NCBI GenBank assembly: GCA_002009975.1 | Contig: MTLP01000016.1 | Location: 1-10,169, forward strand | Source of the DNA: Thermococcus sp. JdFR-02 | Lineage (GTDB): Archaea; Methanobacteriota_B; Thermococci; Thermococcales; Thermococcaceae | Direction of reading: 5' to 3' | Length of the DNA stretch: 10,169 bases | Shown here: positions 808 through 10,169 of the stretch, piece after piece | Position numbering within the stretch: position 1 is the stretch's first letter | Layout of the letters: every line of letters starts with the position of its first letter | Made by a program: the position numbers and the translations under genes | The notes under the pieces: generated by a model | What the model was told of the DNA's origin: nothing | What the model saw: the letters and a program-made list of their open reading frames with translations, nothing else | Database searches by the model: none

Positions 808-821
808 CACAGGTGGCGGGC

Positions 822-1352
822 ATGTCCAAAATGATTGGCTTCCGAGCCCCCGCTGCCCTCCTTGATGAGTTCCGCGAAACACTCAAGAAAGAGGGGGCGA
901 ACGTGAAGGGAGGGCAACAGAAAGCACTAGAAGAGGCTATGAGATTGTGGATTGCCAGCAAGAAGAAAGAAGTTGTTGTATTAGACACTGAGAAGGAGGT
1001 GAACGCCTTGGTTCCGGTGAAAGATATAACTCCGGAGCTCGTTATAGAGAAGGAGGAACTTTCTGTCCATCCTGTAGCTGAGCGGTTTCCGCAGAAGGTT
1101 TTTGTGTATCTCGCTCATGTACTCGTGGAGGCTGCGAAAAAGAATGGTAAGATGGTGACCTGCCAAGTCAGGATGCCTGACGGTTCTATAAAGCCCCTGG
1201 AGTGCTCTCCTGACGAGGCTGTTTCAAAAATTAAAGAAGCTTGGAACCTTGGTATTGCTGGTCAGATTGCCTCTGTAAAACTGGACAACGGCGAATTGTC
1301 CCTTGGTAAAGACTTCTTTGACAAAGTCCCTGCCTCACTCCTCCTTATCTGA
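822..1352 (+). CDS. Ribbon-helix-helix (CopG/Arc-like) DNA-binding protein with unknown C-terminal domain
   Basis: N-terminus KMIGFRAPAALLDEFRETLKKEG...QQKALEEAMRLWI fits the RHH pattern of a beta strand and two helices. SD AGGTGG at 811-816 favours ATG 822 over GTG 813. The 3' end overlaps the convergent gene by 18 bp. Confidence 0.7.
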   Translation: MSKMIGFRAPAALLDEFRETLKKEGANVKGGQQKALEEAMRLWIASKKKEVVVLDTEKEVNALVPVKDITPELVIEKEELSVHPVAERFPQKVFVYLAHVLVEAAKKNGKMVTCQVRMPDGSIKPLECSPDEAVSKIKEAWNLGIAGQIASVKLDNGELSLGKDFFDKVPASLLLI

Positions 1353-1997
1353 GAGCCTCTGCTGAATGATGGGCAGGTGCAAATCTGCCCACTCTGGTTT
1401 TCCACCTTTATGATCCAACGATACTATAAAGGATTTCTCCTTCAAGTCTGAAGCAAGCTTGGCGACGGTGTCCCTCAGCTTGAATTTGTCGTTGCCCTTT
1501 TTGATCCCATGAAGTTTCTCTGTCTCTTCGTCCCACTCGACACCGCCGTAGCTGGGCAAACCAACGAATTCTGGGTTGAGTGTTTCAATGATTGCTTTGA
1601 TGACTTCTATTTCATTCAAATGGATGTCCGCTATTATTAGTCCTCTGAAGTACACGAGTTTCCTGCCGTGCCTTGTTTTGATAACCAACCATATCCATGG
1701 AGTGTGTTGATACTTCAACTCCTTGCCCGTAATTCTCTCGGCATCTGTCCGACCAATCCACTGGACTGTGATGATATTTTTGCCGACTTTATCCCTGAAG
1801 GTCTTGTAATAGTGGGGCGCAGGAATGTCTTCTGGCACCTTGACGAAATATGGGACTTTTACTTCAACCGCTGGATTTAGTGGAAGGTGATCCCTATGAG
1901 GGTGGCTGATAATGACGATGTTCGACTCTAGAAACCCCCTGCAGTCTATGTTGATTTCTGTAAAAATGTCCCTTAGAACCTCCTGCAACTCTAACAT
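1335..1997 (-). CDS. Metallo-beta-lactamase-fold metallohydrolase
   Basis: IIISHPHRDHL matches the HxHxDH motif (1887-1904). Further candidate ligands: HTP, IIADIH, SLDH. SD GAGGTG (2004-2009) favours ATG 1997 over GTG 2006. Confidence 0.75.
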   Translation of the reverse strand: MLELQEVLRDIFTEINIDCRGFLESNIVIISHPHRDHLPLNPAVEVKVPYFVKVPEDIPAPHYYKTFRDKVGKNIITVQWIGRTDAERITGKELKYQHTPWIWLVIKTRHGRKLVYFRGLIIADIHLNEIEVIKAIIETLNPEFVGLPSYGGVEWDEETEKLHGIKKGNDKFKLRDTVAKLASDLKEKSFIVSLDHKGGKPEWADLHLPIIQQRLSDKEE

Positions 1998-2027
1998 CCC
2001 TACCACCTCACGCTAGCTGCTGTGCAG

Positions 2028-2948
2028 CTACCACCTGTTGCGGCTCCGCCACATCGCTGGCGTTCCATGTCTCTTAGTCGTTCTCTTGGCTCTGCGCTTC
2101 ATCTGTGCTCTGGTTCTGTGTGACTTACGCGTATGCACTACCTTGCGGCGGTGCAGGCCCTTGGTACTCCAGAACGGGCGCTCCCATCGCCTAACCGCAA
2201 GGCGCCTAGGGGTGAAGCGTCCACGCTTTCTTGGAGTGTTGCTCACCAACGGATCTGGTATTCTGCGCTGGTAGGGTTTCCATTCGCCGCACAACTGGCA
2301 GCGCAGGACATTGCCCTCGCGCCGCCAGACGTGCATCACATGCGGTAGCTTTGGCTTCTGAGGCACGCCGCTGAAGACTTCTCTGAGCGCCTTGCTGTCA
2401 TAGGATACTGCTAAGGCGCCGTACAGCTTCTTGAGGCCCTGAATGCTCTTCAGAGCCTCCTCATAATCAAGGAGGCCGTCGACAACATCGAACCTACTCG
2501 CGACTGCAGCGACTGACGCGAGCAGGATTCTGATGTCGACGTGTTCTAAGGGCATAACTTTTACCACGCCTTCCTCGCCCCGCGCGGTCTTAACCCGCAC
2601 GAGAGCGAAGCGCAATTGTCCGTTAACATAGACGTAGCAGTGTGGCGGGACGCTGCTGTACTTTGCTGCCTTTATCGGGCGCTCTGGGTAGAATATGTAG
2701 AATCTTCCAGTGCGCCCCAATACGAGGGTACCCTCCCATACATCGCCAGGGGCAACTGGTGCACCTCGGGCTGGGAGGATAACCCTATTATCACGGGCAC
2801 GGGCAATTGCCCTGCCGTCCCGCCCCACAAAGAAGGAGACTACCGCCTTCTGCTTGTGTGAGGTCTCTTCGATGACCTCCATTAGGAGGCACGGGTTGGG
2901 GATGCTGTAGCCCCCGACACCTAGGTTTATTCTTATTGTGGCAGCCAC
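2028..2948 (-). CDS. Hypothetical nucleic-acid-binding protein: OB/TRAM-like beta-rich N-terminus, HxxH...CxxC Zn site, Arg/Lys-rich tail
   Basis: GTG start after SD GGAGGTGGTGA. Segments GRDGRAIAR..RVILP..PGDVWEGTL and HVMHVW..CQLCG; about 80-aa highly basic C-terminus. Domain calls are by eye. Confidence 0.65.
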   Translation of the reverse strand: MAATIRINLGVGGYSIPNPCLLMEVIEETSHKQKAVVSFFVGRDGRAIARARDNRVILPARGAPVAPGDVWEGTLVLGRTGRFYIFYPERPIKAAKYSSVPPHCYVYVNGQLRFALVRVKTARGEEGVVKVMPLEHVDIRILLASVAAVASRFDVVDGLLDYEEALKSIQGLKKLYGALAVSYDSKALREVFSGVPQKPKLPHVMHVWRREGNVLRCQLCGEWKPYQRRIPDPLVSNTPRKRGRFTPRRLAVRRWERPFWSTKGLHRRKVVHTRKSHRTRAQMKRRAKRTTKRHGTPAMWRSRNRW

Positions 2949-3000
2949 TTTTCACCACCTCCTTTTTCAGTTGGAGGAGCATTCTGGCAGGCTGCCAAGT

Positions 3001-3177
3001 GAGATAGCCCGAGCTAACCCGTCTCAGTCTCCTTTTAGGATTAGCTCAGACTACTCCGACTCCAGAACGCTCCCCCTCACGACTCCGCCGGGGACAGTAT
3101 GCCCGCACGTCACGGAGCCGCTCCCTGCCCTCGCGGGCTTTCAGGGCGCGATCCTCGCCCTCCGCCCGGGAACAGGC
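3001..3177 (-). ncRNA. Putative structured RNA leader, copy 1 (unassigned family)
   Basis: Stem 3168-3177/3117-3125; GCCC-GCGA-GGGC GNRA hairpin at 3127-3138; 16-bp stem 3038-3053/3005-3020 with three G-U pairs that form only on the minus strand. Homologous to 3831-3985. Confidence 0.6.
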
Positions 3178-3393
3178 GACCCTAGCAGGCGTGCCAAGGT
3201 TTGAAAAAGGAGTAGCTTCTCCTTTGCCTGTGGATGTATAAAGAGACCCTGTCAGTCTGTCAGAACTGTGCCAAGGCAGATTTGATAAGTCCTCATAATA
3301 TAACTATAGGGCAAAATTTGTGATACACAGAATTATGCTGTTAAGGCAGGATCGAAAGAGCGTCATCGTAATACTGATCAGGAAGCACAAAAT

Positions 3394-3434
3394 AAAAAAA
3401 GCCCGAGCCGGCCTAGCAGGGCTGACTCGGGCTT
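3394..3434 (-). terminator. Hairpin plus T-tract terminator after the small membrane protein gene
   Basis: Minus strand AAGCCCGAGTCAGCC-CTGCTA-GGCCGGCTCGGGCTTTTTTT, about 40 nt after the stop at 3473. Confidence 0.7.
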
Positions 3435-3472
3435 ATGATCGCTTAGATTTTATAAAGAGTAAGGCCCCGCCG

Positions 3473-3802
3473 CTATGCGTAGGCTGGGTCATTGGTATCG
3501 GGCGGAGGATAGCCCTCCCACTCGACCTCGTGCTCCTCTGCCGCCGCCATAATGACGGCGGTGAGGAGCTGTGGGACCCCGGGCTTTTCAAGCACCTCAG
3601 GGTGCTTGTTGATAAGCTCAGTAAGTTGCCTGTGCAACTCGCCCGAGGTTGGTTGCGCATCCTCCTGAAGGACTGACGGAGGCTCTCTACACCGCTCAAC
3701 CATGCGTTTCTTGTATTCCCTGTCCATCCACAAAAGCAAAACCAAAGCAGAAGAAGCCATCCAAAACATCAAAAATACTGGGATGGCCAAAAACACTAAC
3801 AT
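3473..3802 (-). CDS. Small single-pass membrane protein (109 aa) with acidic C-terminus
   Basis: Hydrophobic N-terminus MLVFLAIPVFLMFWMASSALVLLLW followed by DREYKKR. SD GGGGTGGTGA (3808-3817) favours ATG 3802 over 3835. Has its own terminator. Confidence 0.7.
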   Translation of the reverse strand: MLVFLAIPVFLMFWMASSALVLLLWMDREYKKRMVERCREPPSVLQEDAQPTSGELHRQLTELINKHPEVLEKPGVPQLLTAVIMAAAEEHEVEWEGYPPPDTNDPAYA

Positions 3803-3830
3803 CTGAATCACCACCCCTGTTGGTGCACAA

Positions 3831-3985
3831 CCCATCTGCTTCGAGATAGCCTGAGCTAGCCCATCTCCGGGTCAGCAGGTTCCCCCAAAAGAAGCAGATG
3901 GGCGGCTGCTATCGAACTCCCCCTTCGAATTAGCTCCGGTGGGAGCCCGCTCCCTCCCGTCACCGGGTTTTGCCCGGGAGCAGGC
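3831..3985 (-). ncRNA. Putative structured RNA leader, copy 2 (unassigned family)
   Basis: 10-bp stem 3976-3985/3945-3954; CCCG-GTGA-CGGG GNRA hairpin at 3956-3967; perfect 12-bp stem 3891-3902/3831-3842. 3843-3867 is 22/25 identical to 3001-3025. Confidence 0.6.
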
Positions 3986-4471
3986 AAAATTAGCTTTTCA
4001 AAAAATAAGCTATACTTTTAACGCTCCTATTTTAATGGGTCTTTTACTACTCAAATATATTCGGATTCTGGTTGTTTCACGAACGCAGCAGCCCAACGTT
4101 TTCTACTCATCCCAAGTCCGTCTGATCTCCTCCTACTCCTCCGGCTCAGTAGCACTTTTCTATAAATAAATTAACGAAATACAAACAATATTAAAATATT
4201 ACAGCGTTTTGCTCAAAATTAAGCTGCTGATACAAAAAATATCAGTAAATTAATCTTGCCGTTTTGATACGTATCAGCATGCACCTCTGTCACAAATTTG
4301 CAGCGCGTATCATTTGTGCACGTAGAATTATTTGATACGTCCTTCACAATTGCGCAGGAGAATCAAAAAGATTCCTTAACAACTGTGCGGGTTGCACAGC
4401 TTGCCAAGGCATTAGATTGACGAAAAAGTGCTGGAAATGTACTGCCCGATTTTCCTGACACGCTGTGCGCG

Positions 4472-5695
4472 TCAGAACATTCTGAAGGGTGGCTTCAGCC
4501 TGAGCTCGCCACCAAAGAATTTCGCCATGCCCATGATTGATACAAAAGTAATCAGAATGGACACGGCAGGCACGACACCCACCGCAACAAGCAGGAACAC
4601 GGCTACGTTGTGGAAAGCCCTGATTGGGAGTGCTGCAGGCGACATGTAGACGGACTGCGGGTCAGTGGGGTCCGGAATGATGTCCCTGTATGAGAGGCTG
4701 GAGATGCCGAGGTGCAGGTTGCCGCTGCTGTCCACAGTGATCAGCCCGCCGCTAATGCCCGCAATGGCGCGCTTTGATAGGTCGTCAACGATCAGCACGC
4801 CAGCGTAAGTGACTACGGGAAACACGAAGAACATGCTCAGGGCGAAGCCCATAAGCGCAGCTCCTGCACGCCTTGTCGGCGATATTGCACGCATAACTAT
4901 CCCCATGGGCAGAAAGTAGGGTATAACGTAGGTCTGCGCAAACGCAAGCAGCATCTTCATCGCCAGCACAATGGTCAGGCCGTTCATGAGGTACTTCAGG
5001 ACATTCTTGAGCGTATCCTGCGCAAACCCGTTCAGCGCCTTCACCGCACCGGCAATCGCCAGGGCTGCTGCACCGAAGATTTGACCGACCAAGGGCACAA
5101 ACAGCGCGACCTGCCCACCCTCTTTCAGCACAGTGGTCAAAGGCTCTGCAAGTGCGTTCAGAGCCACCTTGAACAGCAGAACAGCACTGTAGAGGGTTGC
5201 GAGCCAGCCACCAAGCTCGTGATAGTAGTTCAGGCACTGACGGTACACCCAGTCCATGCCGAGCATGCCGTACAGATTTGTCACCGCACCCGCATACACC
5301 AGCGCAGCTATTATCACTGAAAAGACCAGCTCGTTCAGCTCTTCAGCAGCGCTCTCCCGGAGGTCGTAGTTCCCGGTGAGTCTGGCGTAGATGTAGAAGA
5401 GGAACACTATCAGCGCAACCAGCGGCAGAAAAGAGCCCATGATGACCGGAAACCATGTGAAGAACCCAACAGGCGAGGGAAAGTTGCCAAAAACTGTGGT
5501 CGTATTAATCACGTACCTCGAAGGGTCGAATGTAAAGGTTGTATCCGGCAGGGTGATTACCGTGAAGTCAGTCGTGTTATCTGGCAGAGTAGTCACAGTG
5601 AAGTTTACCTGTTTCGCAGCTTCTACATGCTCCTGCGGAACAAGGATAAGGACTGCCAACATCAGAATCGCAAACTTCATGCTTGGGCGCAGCAT
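4472..5695 (-). CDS. Polytopic membrane protein with signal peptide; tentatively CedA/VirB6(TrbL)-like DNA-transfer channel subunit
   Basis: Signal-like N-terminus, Thr-rich extracellular segment and many hydrophobic helices. FLPMGIVMRAISPTRRAGAALMGFALSMFFVFP recalls the G-x-x-L-R/M...R-x-AG..L-I/M-x-F..V-x-P segment of archaeal CedA/VirB6-like proteins (from memory, unverified). The ORF itself is solid. Confidence 0.6.
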   Translation of the reverse strand: MLRPSMKFAILMLAVLILVPQEHVEAAKQVNFTVTTLPDNTTDFTVITLPDTTFTFDPSRYVINTTTVFGNFPSPVGFFTWFPVIMGSFLPLVALIVFLFYIYARLTGNYDLRESAAEELNELVFSVIIAALVYAGAVTNLYGMLGMDWVYRQCLNYYHELGGWLATLYSAVLLFKVALNALAEPLTTVLKEGGQVALFVPLVGQIFGAAALAIAGAVKALNGFAQDTLKNVLKYLMNGLTIVLAMKMLLAFAQTYVIPYFLPMGIVMRAISPTRRAGAALMGFALSMFFVFPVVTYAGVLIVDDLSKRAIAGISGGLITVDSSGNLHLGISSLSYRDIIPDPTDPQSVYMSPAALPIRAFHNVAVFLLVAVGVVPAVSILITFVSIMGMAKFFGGELRLKPPFRMF

Positions 5696-5717
5696 CGCAG
5701 GAGAGAGCGGAGAAGCG

Positions 5718-5726
5718 TATATAAAA
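5718..5726 (-). promoter_or_regulatory. Archaeal TATA box for a leaderless transcript of the membrane protein gene
   Basis: Minus strand TTTTATATA ends about 22 nt before ATG 5695; no SD between them. Confidence 0.6.
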
Positions 5727-6327
5727 GAATCAGAACTCCCGCAAAGACTTTGCTATACCTCTAAACAAAATATTTAGATTCTACACCTGGACAAAAACAG
5801 CTGAGACGAATCATAACAACATGAATGTTCGTCATGGAGAAATGATTTGTGACAAGTATCAAAGTAGCTGGATGTTACCCGCAACACCATGCAACGTTAA
5901 TTCTTCTATTCGCTTCTGATTCTGTCCTGCTGCGTACGGCACCAGACACTGCTGATATACATCAGAATAAATCCCTGTAACAATTTTTCAGCCGTACATG
6001 CTGATTCAACTGCTGAATTGATACGTATCTGGCCGCTCATCCAATTCAGTGCGTCTTTTCCTGAAACCTGCCTTTCCGTGTTTTGGTCTTTCTCTTCCAG
6101 CGGTCGTCCAGTTGCCTGCTGGCATTCTGTCCTGCTCAGGTTCTGTGCTGGCGGTTCTCTCTGGTTCTTTTCTGCGTCTGGTTCCTGTGCAGTTCTCGGC
6201 AGTTTCCGTGCCTGCTATGCTCTGCTTTGCCTTCTGCCATGCACAGCTCAGAACCTCATTGCATTCTGCCATGCCAGCACTGCTGTATTCTTGGCTCAGT
6301 TCTGCCAGCTTTGCAATGTTAGCAGGA

Positions 6328-6430
6328 CTTGCAATGCCAAGCCAAGCTCAGCATGCATGCTTTGCGCTGCTCAGCACCGTACTGCTTTGCCCTGCATAGC
6401 TATGCCCTGCTCAGCGATGCTTTGCACTGC
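6328..6430. repeat. Degenerate pentanucleotide (NNWGC) tandem array
   Basis: 6361-6430 reads tttgc gctgc tcagc accgt actgc tttgc cctgc atagc tatgc cctgc tcagc gatgc tttgc actgc (13 of 14 units end in WGC). 6328-6352 reads cttgc aatgc caagc caagc tcagc. Confidence 0.8.
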
Positions 6431-6692
6431 TGCATGCAATGCACTCTCGAGCCTTCATCACGAAAAAAGAAAGACTCTGAGGTGCTTTGGCGGCTAAAGA
6501 AATAAATTGCTATTGCCTTTGCAGAGAAAAAAGAAGCGTCTCCGCTGGTCTGTTTTCTTTCATCACATCGCTCCCGCCCCCCACTGCTCCTCACAGGGCT
6601 TTTATAGAGGAGTGGAAGGTTGGGTGGGGCCGAGGTGGGACAATACCACAAACCTCTGCGGTTCAATGTGTCTTCTGCTTACAGCTAGAGTA

Positions 6693-7883
6693 TCAAATAG
6701 TGTGGTAGGGTAAAGAGGAGGTTCGGGCTTCCACCGCAGGGATAGCTATCTCAATCAGTTTTTCTGCTGTAATTAAAAACTTCTTTAGGAAGTGTTTGAA
6801 GAATTTTATCTCCAGTAGCGAGAAAAAAGGTAGTGGGGGCTGATTGTGTATCACAGTGCTGCACGCTCTATACAGCTCAATCAGATTCCCCCCACCTAGG
6901 CCGTAAGTTTGAGCAAAATTCCTTAACAAATCTCGGTTTATTCCGAGCGAAGGGACCTGCTTTTCTTGAAGTTTATCTAATACTTCAAGAATGTATATAG
7001 TCTCGCCAGATTGTTCTTGTAGAATTTTCAAGAATTTTTTTATAGATTTTTTCTTAAACCTGTCCAGTGAATATATCTTTGGACATCCTTCGTATTCATA
7101 AAAGAACATTGAATACAGATAGACATTAGGATTGATTCCTCTTCCAACATTTAATAAAATGACCAACTTAACGAACCATTCGAGTATGTTTCTCAATAGG
7201 AGATATGCTGCAGGAATGTTAAAGGTCTCAGTCAGCGCTGCATGAAGTTGCCGAATATACATTGATACGCTACTGGTATACAGTCCAATCGAGACAACAT
7301 TGCTTTCTTCTTCTGCTCTTCTCAACTGATCAACTAAACTCTGCATCAGATTAAGAAGCTCCTCTATCTGTTGGAAATCTCCTGTTTTCTTCAGCAATTC
7401 TCTGAAATCATCACGCATTAGATGAAGATGCTTTTCCTCTACAGGTTTTACTTCCCCTATAATAAAGAGTAGATTTTTCCATATATCTCTGTAAACCTTC
7501 ATTATATCTTCTCCGTCCTTTTCAACCTCAGATGCAAGCTGAGAAGCTTTTATCTCCAAATACTCTACAAATAGTTCCCATTTGATACGCATCCTTAAAG
7601 AAGGTCTAGTAGATGATAATGGCGAACAGAGAAACACAGTTACAAAAGGCTTCCCGTTAACAGTGAGGGCATTTTTGTTCTCTTTTAAAAATTTTTGCCA
7701 TTCCTTTCCTATATCTATTGCACTCAAATCTTCTTCGGTTGCCTTTATCATCGCAAGCTTTAGAAAGTGGTAGACCTGCCAAGGCAGATCAACATACAAG
7801 CGACGGGTTCCAAACCTTACCTTAGATTTAGGAGGTGTTCTAAATATGAATGGATACTCTGGAAACAACTTCCTTATGCTCAT
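6693..7883 (-). CDS. Hypothetical helical protein (396 aa) with HEPN-like C-terminal domain
   Basis: Long ORF. AAYLLLRNILE and LYRACSTVIH resemble the 'L-R-x-x-x-E' helix and 'Y-x-x-x-S-x-x-x-H' motif of divergent HEPN/DUF5677-like proteins. No canonical Rx4H motif. Confidence 0.55.
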   Translation of the reverse strand: MSIRKLFPEYPFIFRTPPKSKVRFGTRRLYVDLPWQVYHFLKLAMIKATEEDLSAIDIGKEWQKFLKENKNALTVNGKPFVTVFLCSPLSSTRPSLRMRIKWELFVEYLEIKASQLASEVEKDGEDIMKVYRDIWKNLLFIIGEVKPVEEKHLHLMRDDFRELLKKTGDFQQIEELLNLMQSLVDQLRRAEEESNVVSIGLYTSSVSMYIRQLHAALTETFNIPAAYLLLRNILEWFVKLVILLNVGRGINPNVYLYSMFFYEYEGCPKIYSLDRFKKKSIKKFLKILQEQSGETIYILEVLDKLQEKQVPSLGINRDLLRNFAQTYGLGGGNLIELYRACSTVIHNQPPLPFFSLLEIKFFKHFLKKFLITAEKLIEIAIPAVEARTSSLPYHTI

Positions 7884-7908
7884 TATAAGAGAATTTTGGT
7901 GAAAAATA

Positions 7909-7916
7909 CATATAAA
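7909..7916 (-). promoter_or_regulatory. Archaeal TATA box, with adjacent inverted repeats upstream
   Basis: Minus strand TTTATATG lies 25 nt before ATG 7883; no SD. Confidence 0.6.
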
Positions 7917-8064
7917 GGTTACAAAGTTACATACTTTGTATCAGCTCGAGGATTTCTCGAGCGACCTATACAGGCACCTCGAACCCTCTTCTGAATAGAA
8001 ACATACAATTTGCTCTTAAAGCACTGCTTATAGAAGCGCTTATTACGGTATGTCAAACTCTTTA

Positions 8065-9687
8065 TTATATTCTATGTTCAAATTCCTCAATTATATTGGA
8101 TATCTCCTTTAAAAATTTAAGTGGCAAATTAACAAATTTCTCAGAAACATCTAATACAAATACATTTTCTCCATCCTTTCCAAGAGGAATAGTTAATATT
8201 GCATGCTCAGCAAATATAGGCAACTTTGGAGCAATTGTAAGCAGTGACAATGTATATCCGCCTCTAATTATAAGGAAATCAATCCATCTCCGAACACTTT
8301 CCAATTCCAATGAATACGAAAAAGAATTTTTTTCTCCAAATTTAATATTTAAATATCCGTTTTTTATTTCGATTTGAGGTACTGGTATATGCTCACCGCT
8401 TTTTGTACAAGCAAAACTCCAGTACTGAAGGACATCTAATTCTGGTGTTAACTCTTCAGTAGGGTATAATTCATCACCGATAAGTTGTGGGTCTGTATAA
8501 CCAAGAATAACTGCTTCTATCCCCCAATTCCGGATCTCTTCAGGATTATTAATTACGTAGAACTCATAATAGAAAGCATCCTGTACTGCAGATTGAAAAT
8601 CGAGCAATTCTTCGTAAAGTCTTATAAATTCTTCAAATGAAATTTTCCTTCCATATCTTGTTAGCTCGATTTCCTTAGAATCTATGACTATCTTATACTG
8701 ATTATGGGCAAATGCATTACGGAGCTGTGTATCGTATAATCTAGTTAGTAATGCATAAATTTTTTTGCCACTTTTAAAAAGATTGAACGTTTCTATCATG
8801 TCTTTTAAACCTTTGACTTTTTTACCTTGTTTTAATCTACTAGATGGTAATTTTATTTTTCTAAATGGGTTTTTACATATTTTTATCCCCTCTATGATGT
8901 ACACTAAATTTAAAAGGAGGGTTAAAATTGTTTGACTTTCTAATGCATCCTTGTAAGCTGATAATTTTGTTAAAATCTCATATTTTTCTAAATCGAAAGT
9001 ATCTTCAGCTTGGATTCCCATTAATTTTGTATTTTCAAATAATATTTTTTGTTTTCTAGGTGCAATCTCATGAGCAGAGGTATTGAAGGACTCTATACTC
9101 ATTGTGTACCAATCTATAATATTTTTTAGATTATTAAACTCTGCCAAATTTGCTTTTTTAGCTTCTAAAATAAGTTTGTTAATTAGTTTAGAATAAATAT
9201 CATCTTCTTTATCTTCGATTGTGGTAAAATGGCTCTTTAAGGCAAGTGTAAAAAAATGGAATCCGATAATAAACTCATCAGGATGTCCTGTAGGAAATAA
9301 CCCTTTGGCCAATTCCTTGATTTTCTTAGTATCCTCCTCATCTAAAAATTTTTGGGAAGGTTCATTTAATAACCATCTCTCAAAAATAGCGGTTATTTTT
9401 TCGATTCTTTCCAGTATAGTAAGATCCAAAACTTCATTTTCATAATTTCCACATCGTTTACAAGGCACCTCATTAGAATTGTACTGTTTTCTTAGTTTAT
9501 CCGCCATACTTCTATGTAAAATCATAATTTCTCCACACTTGCATTGATGGACTTCTAAATCTTTACTTTCTAAAGCTGCCTCTATTTTTTTAGTAAATCT
9601 CGGAGAAAGAAGTCCATGACCACGCTTTTCGAATAATTTTCTCAATTTTTCCCTATCAATCTCTTCAATAGATTTGATCCTTACCAT
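8065..9687 (-). CDS. HEPN-domain putative RNase with N-terminal Cys4 Zn-binding motif (about 540 aa)
   Basis: LRNAFAHN matches the canonical R-N-x3-H HEPN motif (8704-8721); CKCG...CKRCG near the N-terminus. TTAAAAAT at 9709-9716 about 22 nt upstream favours ATG 9687 over TTG 9756. Very AT-rich. Confidence 0.7.
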   Translation of the reverse strand: MVRIKSIEEIDREKLRKLFEKRGHGLLSPRFTKKIEAALESKDLEVHQCKCGEIMILHRSMADKLRKQYNSNEVPCKRCGNYENEVLDLTILERIEKITAIFERWLLNEPSQKFLDEEDTKKIKELAKGLFPTGHPDEFIIGFHFFTLALKSHFTTIEDKEDDIYSKLINKLILEAKKANLAEFNNLKNIIDWYTMSIESFNTSAHEIAPRKQKILFENTKLMGIQAEDTFDLEKYEILTKLSAYKDALESQTILTLLLNLVYIIEGIKICKNPFRKIKLPSSRLKQGKKVKGLKDMIETFNLFKSGKKIYALLTRLYDTQLRNAFAHNQYKIVIDSKEIELTRYGRKISFEEFIRLYEELLDFQSAVQDAFYYEFYVINNPEEIRNWGIEAVILGYTDPQLIGDELYPTEELTPELDVLQYWSFACTKSGEHIPVPQIEIKNGYLNIKFGEKNSFSYSLELESVRRWIDFLIIRGGYTLSLLTIAPKLPIFAEHAILTIPLGKDGENVFVLDVSEKFVNLPLKFLKEISNIIEEFEHRI

Positions 9688-9821
9688 AACATTATATTGA
9701 AATCCCCTATTTTTAATCTTTATTCGCTTGTTTACATCTTCACGCAGGTGCAGCAAAACTCAGCACAGCCAATTTACCCTTATCATCTTTCCAAAAACTT
9801 GAGATTTGTCAGCTTTATCTC

Positions 9822-10160
9822 TTATTCTTCTCTCACTTCCTTTTCCTTCTTCTTTCGCTTTTTACCCCAGTTCCCAAGTGGTACCAGTTTGAACCTCCCC
9901 CTTCCTCCATAGTGTACGTAGGCAGCGAAGCCTTTTCGCTCTTTGGCAACCTCCCTCAGCTTTCTTCTTTCTTTTCTGGATAGCTTGGCTGAATGGCTCT
10001 TAACCTGCACGTATGTTTTCACACCGCTCGGTGAGACGGCGTAGATGTCGTATGGGCCTCTGCTTCCTTTGCTGCGCCTGACGTTCCTGAATCCAAATCT
10101 TTTTAGCCAGTCTGCCACCTTCTTCTCAGCTATCCTCCCACGACGATACCTGTTTACCAT
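9822..10160 (-). CDS. Hjc-like / Mrr-like PD-(D/E)xK endonuclease (112 aa)
   Basis: G-x-x-AE-x-x-V-x-x-x-L-x-x-x-GF...R-S-x-GS-x-G-P-Y-D-I...V-Q-V-K matches the archaeal Holliday junction resolvase pattern, with QxK in place of ExK. Confidence 0.8.
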   Translation of the reverse strand: MVNRYRRGRIAEKKVADWLKRFGFRNVRRSKGSRGPYDIYAVSPSGVKTYVQVKSHSAKLSRKERRKLREVAKERKGFAAYVHYGGRGRFKLVPLGNWGKKRKKKEKEVREE

Positions 10161-10169
10161 GTTTTTAGT

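Follow-up and report, generated by a model that had tools for sequence, protein, structure and literature searches.

The question raised by this locus is what a pair of similar GC-rich, non-coding stretches is doing upstream of two different genes on one small contig of Thermococcus sp. JdFR-02 (MTLP01000016.1). This contig (C32 of G000, a 2.36-Mb assembly in 44 contigs) was analysed over its complete length of 10,169 bp, which we refer to as the window. An initial annotation, made by reading the sequence, had described the two stretches as homologous structured leaders forming a candidate new archaeal family of cis-regulatory RNA; our analysis confirms the observation and partly supports the interpretation. 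A conserved structured RNA element on the sense strand of the two genes is very likely, and it is likely, with somewhat less confidence, that this element is cis-regulatory; a response specifically to a protein is a much more tentative proposition. The reading that we favour, with a probability of about 0.4, is that of a new family of cis-acting 5′ leader RNAs, about 190-270 nt long and composed of several domains, that would function as a protein-responsive translational operator.

3180-2949, minus strand: copy A of the leader, non-coding and GC-rich, before an open reading frame (ORF) of 306 amino acids (aa; 2948-2028)
2028-2948, minus strand: the 306-aa gene behind copy A; its protein belongs to the GVGGY-motif family and ends in a strongly basic tail
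3988-3803, minus strand: copy B of the leader, non-coding and GC-rich, before a membrane-protein ORF of about 109 aa (3802-3473)
3001-3025, minus strand: 25-nt motif of copy A
3867-3843, minus strand: 25-nt motif of copy B

Two leader copies in the window and four homologues elsewhere

All four elements that had originally been listed as common to the two copies were found on the minus strand at the reported places. The most conspicuous of them is the 25-nt motif, which is identical between A and B in 22 of 25 positions, all three differences being transitions, as first described. With up to 3 mismatches allowed, it occurs exactly twice in the window (mean 0.00 and maximum 0 in 200 dinucleotide shuffles), and copies A and B are its only occurrences in the whole 2.36-Mb genome. 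The distance from the motif to the start codon, previously estimated at 30-55 nt, is 52 nt in copy A (GTG at 2948) and 40 nt in copy B (ATG at 3802), each start being led by a Shine-Dalgarno (SD) sequence. The two downstream proteins, one soluble and basic (306 aa) and the other a membrane protein of about 109 aa, show no mutual resemblance by eye (unaligned), which agrees with their earlier description as unrelated.

The search for homologues and covariation that had been proposed as a check identified four further copies, L007, L004, L012 and L013, each located before a homologue of the 306-aa gene and each with the same order of elements. A 24-nt degenerate pattern of the 5′ domain matched three metagenome stretches, one of which is L007; its leader is about 91% identical to copy A and precedes a diverged homologue of the 306-aa gene. 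The leader and promoter block as a whole is 91.5% identical between the window and L007, and the first two thirds of the 306-aa ORF yield no blastn match between them at E<=1e-3. L004 is a single locus from a contig scan, in a Candidatus Hydrothermarchaeota record, where the homologous ORF again carries a leader with the same succession of elements. A covariance model (CM) of the 5′ domain, R1, detected L012 and L013 in a second genome of the same phylum, in which 2 of 37 genomes had matches. With these copies, the known family comprises 6 sequences from about 4 lineages (A/L007, B, L004 and L012/L013); two more close variants of copy A are present in read contigs (four DNA runs).

Beyond these loci, the element appears to be rare in the databases searched. 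In the family of the window, R1 at E<=0.1 matched 2 of 97 genomes, namely, G000 itself and one (G023/L011) whose 22.5-bit match, with a per-genome E of 0.08 among 97 genomes, we regard as chance; across the phylum of the window, it matched 1 of 133 genomes, again G000 itself. The 25-nt motif was likewise present in only 1 of the 97 genomes of the family, G000. Nothing was found in viral contigs with two DNA motifs and three protein queries, in PLSDB and INPHARED with the leader or the 306-aa protein, or in a metagenome protein scan. Several candidates were rejected: L005 and L006, which are one sequence present twice and have the 24-nt pattern inside an apparent coding stretch (by eye) and an R1 score of only 21 bits; L019, which scored 31.7 bits with R2, the model of the 3′ domain described below, but on reading consists of an AT-rich promoter, an SD and a short hairpin; and L021 and L022, matches of a gapped pattern in viral contigs without a CM match.

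Copy B was tested with two models built without it. R3, for the 5′ domain, matched copy B with 28.6 bits (E 0.0057 genome-wide), and R2, for the 3′ domain, with 29.5 bits (E 5.4e-5 over the loci and 0.0036 genome-wide); for each model, this was the only match besides copy A in the 2.36-Mb genome, and the two matches on copy B are adjacent, collinear and in the correct orientation. In its 3′ domain, moreover, copy B has features in common with L004 and L012 that are not found in A, namely, the linker, CCAUCUGCUU plus the U-tract, and UGUGCAC.

No known family accounts for these sequences. Rfam 15 (4227 models, among them every curated class of riboswitch, ribozyme and leader) gave no match in the window at the gathering score. 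At E<=10, there were 5 weak matches in 2900-4100, none of which overlapped either leader, and at E<=1 the single match among L004, L007, L012 and L013 was an unrelated long non-coding RNA model inside an ORF. Thus, neither copy nor any homologue matches Rfam, the check that had been suggested first. Insertion sequence ends or miniature inverted-repeat transposable element ends were ruled out because there are two genomic copies, on one contig and in the same orientation, without an inverted partner. Readings as a K-turn, bulge-helix-bulge or C/D-box element were also rejected, no conserved signature being apparent by eye. A full-text literature search, followed through titles and the beginnings of abstracts, contained no mention of this element in those parts, and none of the 6 sequencing runs found for 2900-4100 was an RNA run. 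Taken together, these results suggest a new family of a known kind, the structured mRNA leader.

Structure of the leader RNA

The order of parts is best seen in copy A, where a putative promoter is followed by an optional hairpin (P0), a 5′ domain, a lineage-variable hairpin (P3) and a 3′ domain; the corresponding parts of copy B are listed after those of copy A.

3235-3263, minus strand: putative promoter of copy A, read in the sequence
3180-3199, minus strand: P0 hairpin of copy A, CCUUGGCA-CGCC-UGCUAGGG
3114-3180, minus strand: 5′ domain of copy A (R1 match, 94.1 bits)
3179-3175 with 3166-3162, minus strand: S1 of copy A
3172-3168 with 3125-3121, minus strand: S2 (pseudoknot) of copy A
3161-3156 with 3148-3143, minus strand: P1a hairpin of copy A
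3138-3135, loop GCGA, 3130-3127, minus strand: P2 GNRA hairpin of copy A
3081-3117, minus strand: P3 of copy A, a lineage-variable hairpin directly 3′ of the pseudoknot
3062-3072, minus strand: 5′ strand of P6 of copy A (GAGCGUUCUGG; columns 9-19 with 100-110 of alignment A12)
2977-2987, minus strand: 3′ strand of P6 of copy A (CCAGAAUGCUC), pairing with 3072-3062
3016-3013 (UAGC), loop UCGG 3012-3009, 3008-3005 (GCUA), minus strand: P5 hairpin of copy A
2946-2976, minus strand: putative expression platform of copy A, with CCUCC (anti-SD-like), the SD GGAGGUG (2962-2956) and GTG (2948-2946)
3943-3988, minus strand: 5′ domain of copy B (R1, 48 bits), without P1a
3987-3983 with 3974-3971, minus strand: S1 of copy B
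3980-3976 with 3954-3950, minus strand: S2 of copy B
3967-3956, minus strand: P2 of copy B, CCCG-GUGA-CGGG
3829-3912, minus strand: 3′ domain of copy B, with P6 formed by 3904-3894 and 3839-3829
3893-3885, minus strand: U-rich tract of copy B
3858-3855 (UAGC), loop UCAG, 3850-3847 (GCUA), minus strand: P5 of copy B
3816-3806, minus strand: SD of copy B, GGGGUGGUGAU, with ATG at 3802
3392-3434, minus strand: terminator-like hairpin and T-run between the copy-B gene and the copy-A promoter

The initial annotation had the leader open with a helix, and the complementarity on which this was based is real: GCCUG(U/C)UCCCGGGC (3177-3164 in A, 3985-3972 in B) has its complement in GGGAGCGG (3125-3118 and 3954-3947, respectively). 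A single nested helix, however, is not the best description of these pairings, and a hairpin plus pseudoknot fits better according to the pair counts in A9, a CM-guided alignment of the 5′ domain of the 6 leaders. The nested long-range P1 with P1a and P2 has 94.1% of the cells paired and 8 of 18 pairs changed on both sides; the local hairpin with P1a and P2 has 96.8% and 9 of 17; and for an H-type pseudoknot with P1a and P2, the values are 97.3% (of 112 cells) and 10 of 20 (19 cells). In the pseudoknot model, the base of the S1 hairpin is retained, and five nucleotides of its loop pair with a downstream GGRRG (S2). We prefer this model because it keeps all well-supported pairs and drops the weak ones. 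None of 500 shuffles reached its values for paired cells, pairs changed on both sides or covariation, and 347 of 500 reached its count of further pair types; when the pseudoknot partners were slid by 1-3 columns, only 40-54% remained paired.

The long loop of the pseudoknot contains the optional hairpin P1a followed by AAA, P2 and a single A. P2 had been recognised from the outset as a 4-bp GNRA hairpin whose pairing is kept while its sequence differs (GCCC-GCGA-GGGC at 3138-3127 and CCCG-GUGA-CGGG at 3967-3956), and it has this form in every leader, with the loops GCGA, GUGA and GCAA and the stems GCCC, CCCG and GUCC. The unpaired purines on its two sides, AAA before and A after, are present in 6 of the 6 leaders.

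For the 3′ domain, R2 was built from A, L007 and L004 only (A12 is its alignment), and it recovered L012, L013 and copy B. The domain is closed by P6, an 11-bp long-range helix with an invariant UCUG/CAGA core, in which the stretch after P3 pairs with the stretch before the SD. In A12, 93.9% of the P6 cells are paired, and 6 of the 11 pairs are changed on both sides, with up to 4 pair types per pair; even between A and L007, two pairs differ in a compatible manner (U-A to G-C and G·U to G-C). Enclosed by P6 is P5, which forms the core of the 25-nt motif, a correction to the earlier description of this motif: the stem UAGC-N4-GCUA is invariant in 6 of 6 leaders, and its loops are UCGG, UCAG, UUGA and UAUG. 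A fifth loop, CCAG, follows from the read-contig variant X4/X5, in which the only two changes within the 25-nt motif both fall in the P5 loop (3012 and 3010). A positionally conserved partner for the P5 region ('P4') was considered and rejected: the upstream complements of the individual lineages pair with different halves of the motif (by eye). The remaining element of the original list, the blocks AGGGGGAG..UUC and GAGCUAAU, does occur in swapped order in A and B; the swap, however, is not a family feature, given that GGGGGAG and GAGCUAAU are not found as such in L004, L012 and L013, where the aligned stretches have other sequences (by eye). The 5′ strand of P6 is formed by part of the A block.

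Unconstrained minimum free energy folds contain P2, P3 and P6 in 6 of 6 leaders, with P3 differing in shape among them and changed on both sides between L004 and L012 (by eye). P0 lies at the same place in L004 (CCCGCUCA-CGCC-UGAGCGGG), with several pairs changed on both sides (by eye); its equivalent in L012 has a longer loop, and a hairpin of this form is lacking in copy B. In B, L004, L012 and L013, but not in A and L007, the 5′ strand of P6 leads into an oligo-U tract.

Two lines of evidence bear on the strand and on coding capacity. The supported helices contain 20 G·U cells compared with 2 A·C cells, from which it follows that the fold belongs to the gene-sense strand. The single-base insertions and deletions that distinguish copy A from its close variants, together with the lack of an ORF common to the copies, argue against coding. 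Over 208 nt, copy A has a folding energy of -108 kcal/mol (z -4.3). The covariation of S1/S2, P2 and P6, the homology of the copies and the G·U and A·C counts all agree with the original proposal of homologous leaders structured on the gene-sense strand, and the covariation support for the family appears real but thin.

All copies run up to a strong SD and start, and about 15-30 nt lie between the end of the P6 3′ strand and the SD. Short anti-SD hairpins can be drawn in 5 of the 6 leaders, without a conserved position (by eye). A closing helix between the 5′ tract and the SD was rejected as a family feature: it stands out in copy A alone, where 0.4% of 500 shuffles are as stable, the corresponding values for the duplex being 10% in L007 and 54-58% in L004, L012 and B. 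An in-frame ATG at 3835, without an SD, lies within P6 of copy B.

Upstream of copy A, two CTGACAG direct repeats (3261-3247), which resemble an operator, precede a TATA-like box, TTTATACA (3242-3235), and a near-identical box, CTTTATA(T)ACATCC, also precedes the leaders of L007, L012 and L013. In a T. kodakarensis transcriptome study, the median distance from TATA to the start is 23 bp and the median 5′ untranslated region (UTR) is 16 nt (PMC4247193). Applied to the TATA-like box, this 23-bp spacing would place the transcription start of copy A near 3213 and give a leader of about 265 nt, far above the 16-nt median reported there. CTGACAG-like sequences also occur before another gene at about 4440-4470 of L007 (minus strand; TTGACAGACTGACCGACTGAG) and in L012 (CAGTTCTAATTGACAAAAGAC); repeats of this type look like a common operator for a DNA-binding protein that the element might encode.

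Proposed function and alternative readings

Given that related archaeal copies keep the same folds, the leader most likely controls the expression of the downstream gene. In the mechanism that we propose, a transcript starting at the TATA-type promoter would contain, in succession, the optional P0, the H-type pseudoknot, P3, the P6-closed domain enclosing P5, and the SD. The folded leader would serve as the operator for a trans-acting factor encoded by the element, most likely an RNA-binding protein, for which the basic protein encoded by the downstream GVGGY-family gene is a possible candidate; once bound, the factor would stabilise the P6-closed fold and determine the access to the adjacent SD and start codon, so that both leader-bearing genes of the element could be under one post-transcriptional control. 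A protein partner is favoured because the invariant stems (P5 and the P6 core) suggest sequence-specific recognition, because the context is a mobile element with no metabolic gene, and because the 306-aa protein has a basic tail and a weak, non-significant resemblance to RNA-binding folds of the OB/KOW/TRAM type, a slight hint of beta domains of the kind that bind nucleic acid.

The C-terminal 60 residues of this protein are almost pure Arg, Lys and His and are more conserved than the remainder, with 88.6% DNA identity between the window and L007 over 2027-2219. The GVGGY family is small, with 7 proteins at E<=0.001 in a word-indexed search; among 1.84 billion representatives, 21 representative clusters reach E<=1e-3, and 10 of these reach E<=1e-10. 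The 306-aa protein had no match in Pfam, PHROGs, PDB sequences or the protein atlas, and the membrane protein of about 109 aa had none in Pfam or PHROGs. The AlphaFold2 model of the 306-aa protein has a mean predicted local distance difference test score (pLDDT) of 64 and gave no Foldseek match at E<=0.001 in PDB or BFVD; the non-significant matches included eS4, Rho and RumA, which are OB/KOW/TRAM-type proteins. In one remote relative, P0016, the matching stretch just reaches the Pfam TRAM cut-off (21.4 bits compared with 21). A search of PDB with a wider profile returned nothing relevant and fell short of the TRAM structures.

Several observations weigh against a protein-responsive operator or against the structure on which it is based. 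RNA binding by the 306-aa protein is unproven, the protein having no Pfam, PDB or significant fold match, and no SD-sequestering pairing is conserved across the leaders. The start site upstream of the structures is inferred solely from the TATA-like box. The z scores of folding energy overlap between the sense (-1.6 to -4.5) and antisense (-0.8 to -3.8) strands. The 6 sequences come from about 4 lineages, such that many of the counted cells represent one or two events, and A9 and A12 were fitted to models that carry part of the tested structure. The nested P1, the local hairpin and the pseudoknot overlap, and a switch between them is possible. In P6, the read contig X3 (2920-3167) has a change at 3067 without its partner at 2982, a G·A break if this contig is not chimeric, and the outer end of the helix has an A·C in the X4/X5 variant. 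Finally, copy B sits before a different gene, whose homologue in L007 has an unrelated leader; this arrangement indicates that the leader is a movable module rather than the fixed partner of a single gene.

Among known systems, the closest in kind are the autogenous translational operators in phage and ribosomal-protein mRNAs, such as the pseudoknot in the phage T4 gene 32 leader. As in gene 32, a structured leader with a pseudoknot stands before the SD of a mobile-element gene, the encoded protein is a possible nucleic-acid binder, and control of translation through protein binding is what we propose here. Unlike the gene 32 leader, the archaeal one is much larger and has two domains, with the GNRA hairpin, the long-range P6 and the invariant P5; from the pseudoknot to the SD, the RNA is folded rather than single-stranded; and the same RNA also precedes an unrelated membrane-protein gene, binding being in this case only a proposal. 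Leaders of rep mRNAs of bacterial plasmids under antisense-RNA control (R1 CopT and the pT181/pIP501 type) are also comparable, being multi-hairpin leaders on small extrachromosomal-type elements that are better conserved than the adjacent coding sequence. The present leaders differ from these in that inspection by eye showed no antisense promoter within the GC-rich leader, a replication domain is not recognisable in the downstream protein, and the two copies stand before unrelated genes.

The main rival of a protein-responsive operator is a small-molecule or ion riboswitch, possible but doubtful in our estimate, in which the pseudoknot/GNRA and P6 domain would be the aptamer and the ligand would alter access to the SD or termination at the U-tract. 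Much of the structure described above would suit such an RNA, including the pseudoknotted fold, the GNRA loop, the unpaired purines conserved in 6 of 6 leaders, the mutually exclusive pairings of the 5′ domain, lineage-specific alternatives to P5 (by eye), the oligo-U tract behind the 5′ strand of P6 in B, L004, L012 and L013, and the use of the same RNA before two genes. The invariant stems, however, are more like protein or tertiary contacts, A and L007 lack the U-tract, and the downstream genes encode mobile-element proteins without a recognised function rather than transporters or enzymes; no Rfam class matches, and the sequences are too few to define a ligand pocket. The fluoride and preQ1 aptamers are about 3-4 times shorter than this leader. 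ZTP/pfl, fluoride/crcB and preQ1 riboswitches resemble it in combining a pseudoknot, hairpins in the connecting loop, unpaired purines, possible alternative pairings and a position in the 5′-UTR (the latter inferred here); they differ from it in that their CMs gave no match even at E<=10 and in that the genes concerned here have no role in metabolism or transport, the themes of the genes that riboswitches usually precede. For Thermococcales, the transcriptome paper reports transcripts of riboswitches predicted to be of the fluoride and preQ1 classes (PMC4247193).

A more specific variant, which we consider unlikely, is a sensing riboregulator of archaeal mobile elements, with a pseudoknot/GNRA aptamer docked on P6/P5 that would read a signal of the cell or of the element itself, in the form of a small molecule or nucleotide messenger. 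Were it true, several virus or plasmid modules would be co-regulated, and the leader would be a portable RNA control cassette moving between genes and the first riboswitch class known only from archaeal mobile elements.

The leader might also be constitutive, with no sensing, and serve to protect the 5′ end from decay in the heat, as a processing site or as a translation enhancer. The fold is very GC-rich and stable in an assembly with a GC content of only ~37.5%, and no partner is needed, but the conserved unpaired nucleotides, the invariant stem with a free loop and the pseudoknot exceed what stability requires, and copy B lacks two hairpins yet keeps the core; we rate a constitutive leader as quite improbable.

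A separate small non-coding RNA gene, consisting of the 5′ domain and P3 and ending at the oligo-U, with an ordinary UTR downstream, is less probable still. Archaeal termination at oligo-T is not known to need a hairpin, and 4 of the 6 copies have a run of 5-6 U (2+4 in B) behind the 5′ strand of P6, but this run is missing from A and L007, P6, the best-supported helix, pairs across it, and the 3′ domain is as conserved as the 5′ domain. A precedent for such an RNA is a predicted riboswitch that, in the same study, appears as an orphan small transcript (PMC4247193).

The least probable reading is a DNA-level element, that is, a single-strand origin, an Frpo-like hairpin, a recombination module or a TAGC-N4-GCTA operator bound by a DNA-binding dimer: G·T wobbles are strand-specific in single-stranded DNA too, the P5 stem is an invariant palindrome with a free, operator-like spacer, and the conserved leader block has diverged DNA on both sides, an arrangement that would fit modular recombination, but each copy is flanked, in gene sense, by a TATA-like box and an SD, the long-range P6 and the pseudoknot show covariation that sites in duplex DNA do not require, the palindrome is ~200 bp downstream of the putative promoter, and no rolling-circle Rep, relaxase or transfer gene was recognised among the 9 window ORFs, nearly all of which are unannotated. 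Frpo folds into a bacterial -35/-10 promoter on transferred single-stranded DNA in conjugative leading regions. The analogy with Frpo drawn initially, for which strand-specific G·U(T) pairs on a mobile element are the sole support, was given up: the genome is archaeal, the best pairings are long-range and pseudoknotted, and a sigma-70 scan of 2800-4400 yielded 2 sites compared with 1.3 expected, both outside the structures.

To our knowledge, few cis-regulatory RNAs are known in Archaea. According to the 2014 T. kodakarensis transcriptome report, there was then no direct in-vivo evidence for archaeal attenuators or riboswitches (PMC4247193). The leader described here is a compact, well-delimited candidate of about 150-250 nt on an uncharacterised archaeal element, located before a conserved gene family and reused before a second, unrelated gene. 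If regulatory, it would open a way into the control of genes on mobile elements of Archaea and supply Thermococcales genetics with a thermostable RNA part.

The carrier element and its host

Comparison of the window with the 11.7-kb metagenome contig L007 showed that the two are collinear over four blocks (88-98% identity) and that the DNA in between is unrelated or diverged, a mosaic of the kind typical of mobile elements.

1-752, 2027-2219, 2940-3434 and 9841-10169: blocks of the window matching L007 (DNA comparison)
9822-10160, minus strand: small protein of the Mrr_cat type (restriction-endonuclease fold; Pfam E 9e-6)
813-1352, plus strand: 179-aa ORF whose start is like that of a ribbon-helix-helix regulator (by eye, without a Pfam match)
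1335-2006, minus strand: 223-aa ORF with an HPHRDH motif recalling metallo-beta-lactamase-fold enzymes (by eye, without a Pfam match)

The matching blocks comprise both contig ends, the block with leader A, the promoter and the terminator, and the basic tail of the 306-aa ORF. The Mrr_cat-type gene, 97.6% identical in DNA to the end of L007, is the best-conserved gene of the element, and tblastx counterparts of the 813-1352 and 1335-2006 ORFs adjoin the leader-bearing gene in L004. The low-GC part of the window (6700-9800) contains two large ORFs, of 396 and 563 aa, without a Pfam match; in L007, this part is replaced by other genes, including a staphylococcal-nuclease homologue and a 413-aa winged-helix protein. 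We read the window and L007 as a mosaic mobile element with exchangeable cargo, and the carrier of the leaders as a small archaeal plasmid- or virus-like element of marine and subsurface metagenomes.

The assembly itself is archaeal (RNaseP_arch 227 bits, above the cut-off). Its large contigs have a GC content of ~37.5%, compared with 45.5% for the window overall and 53-60% at 2000-5600, and no DNA common to the window and any other contig of the assembly was found. The host of the element is uncertain because this GC content is unlike that of the metagenome-assembled genome, the relatives of that genome lack the element, and other copies are in Hydrothermarchaeota bins. Six further small contigs of the assembly (C18, C22, C26, C38, C43 and C44) are GC-rich at 44-49%; G000 may contain further foreign or mobile DNA besides the window contig.

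At 5700-6690, the window has ~1 kb in which no ORF is convincing. This stretch is strongly depleted of T on the minus strand (AT skew of -0.42 for the plus strand over 6001-6400), is dense in short GCA-rich direct repeats (families D4 and D5, GCTTTGCGCTGCTCAGC-like and TTGCCTTCTGCCATGC-like) and could be a replication origin or a long non-coding RNA.

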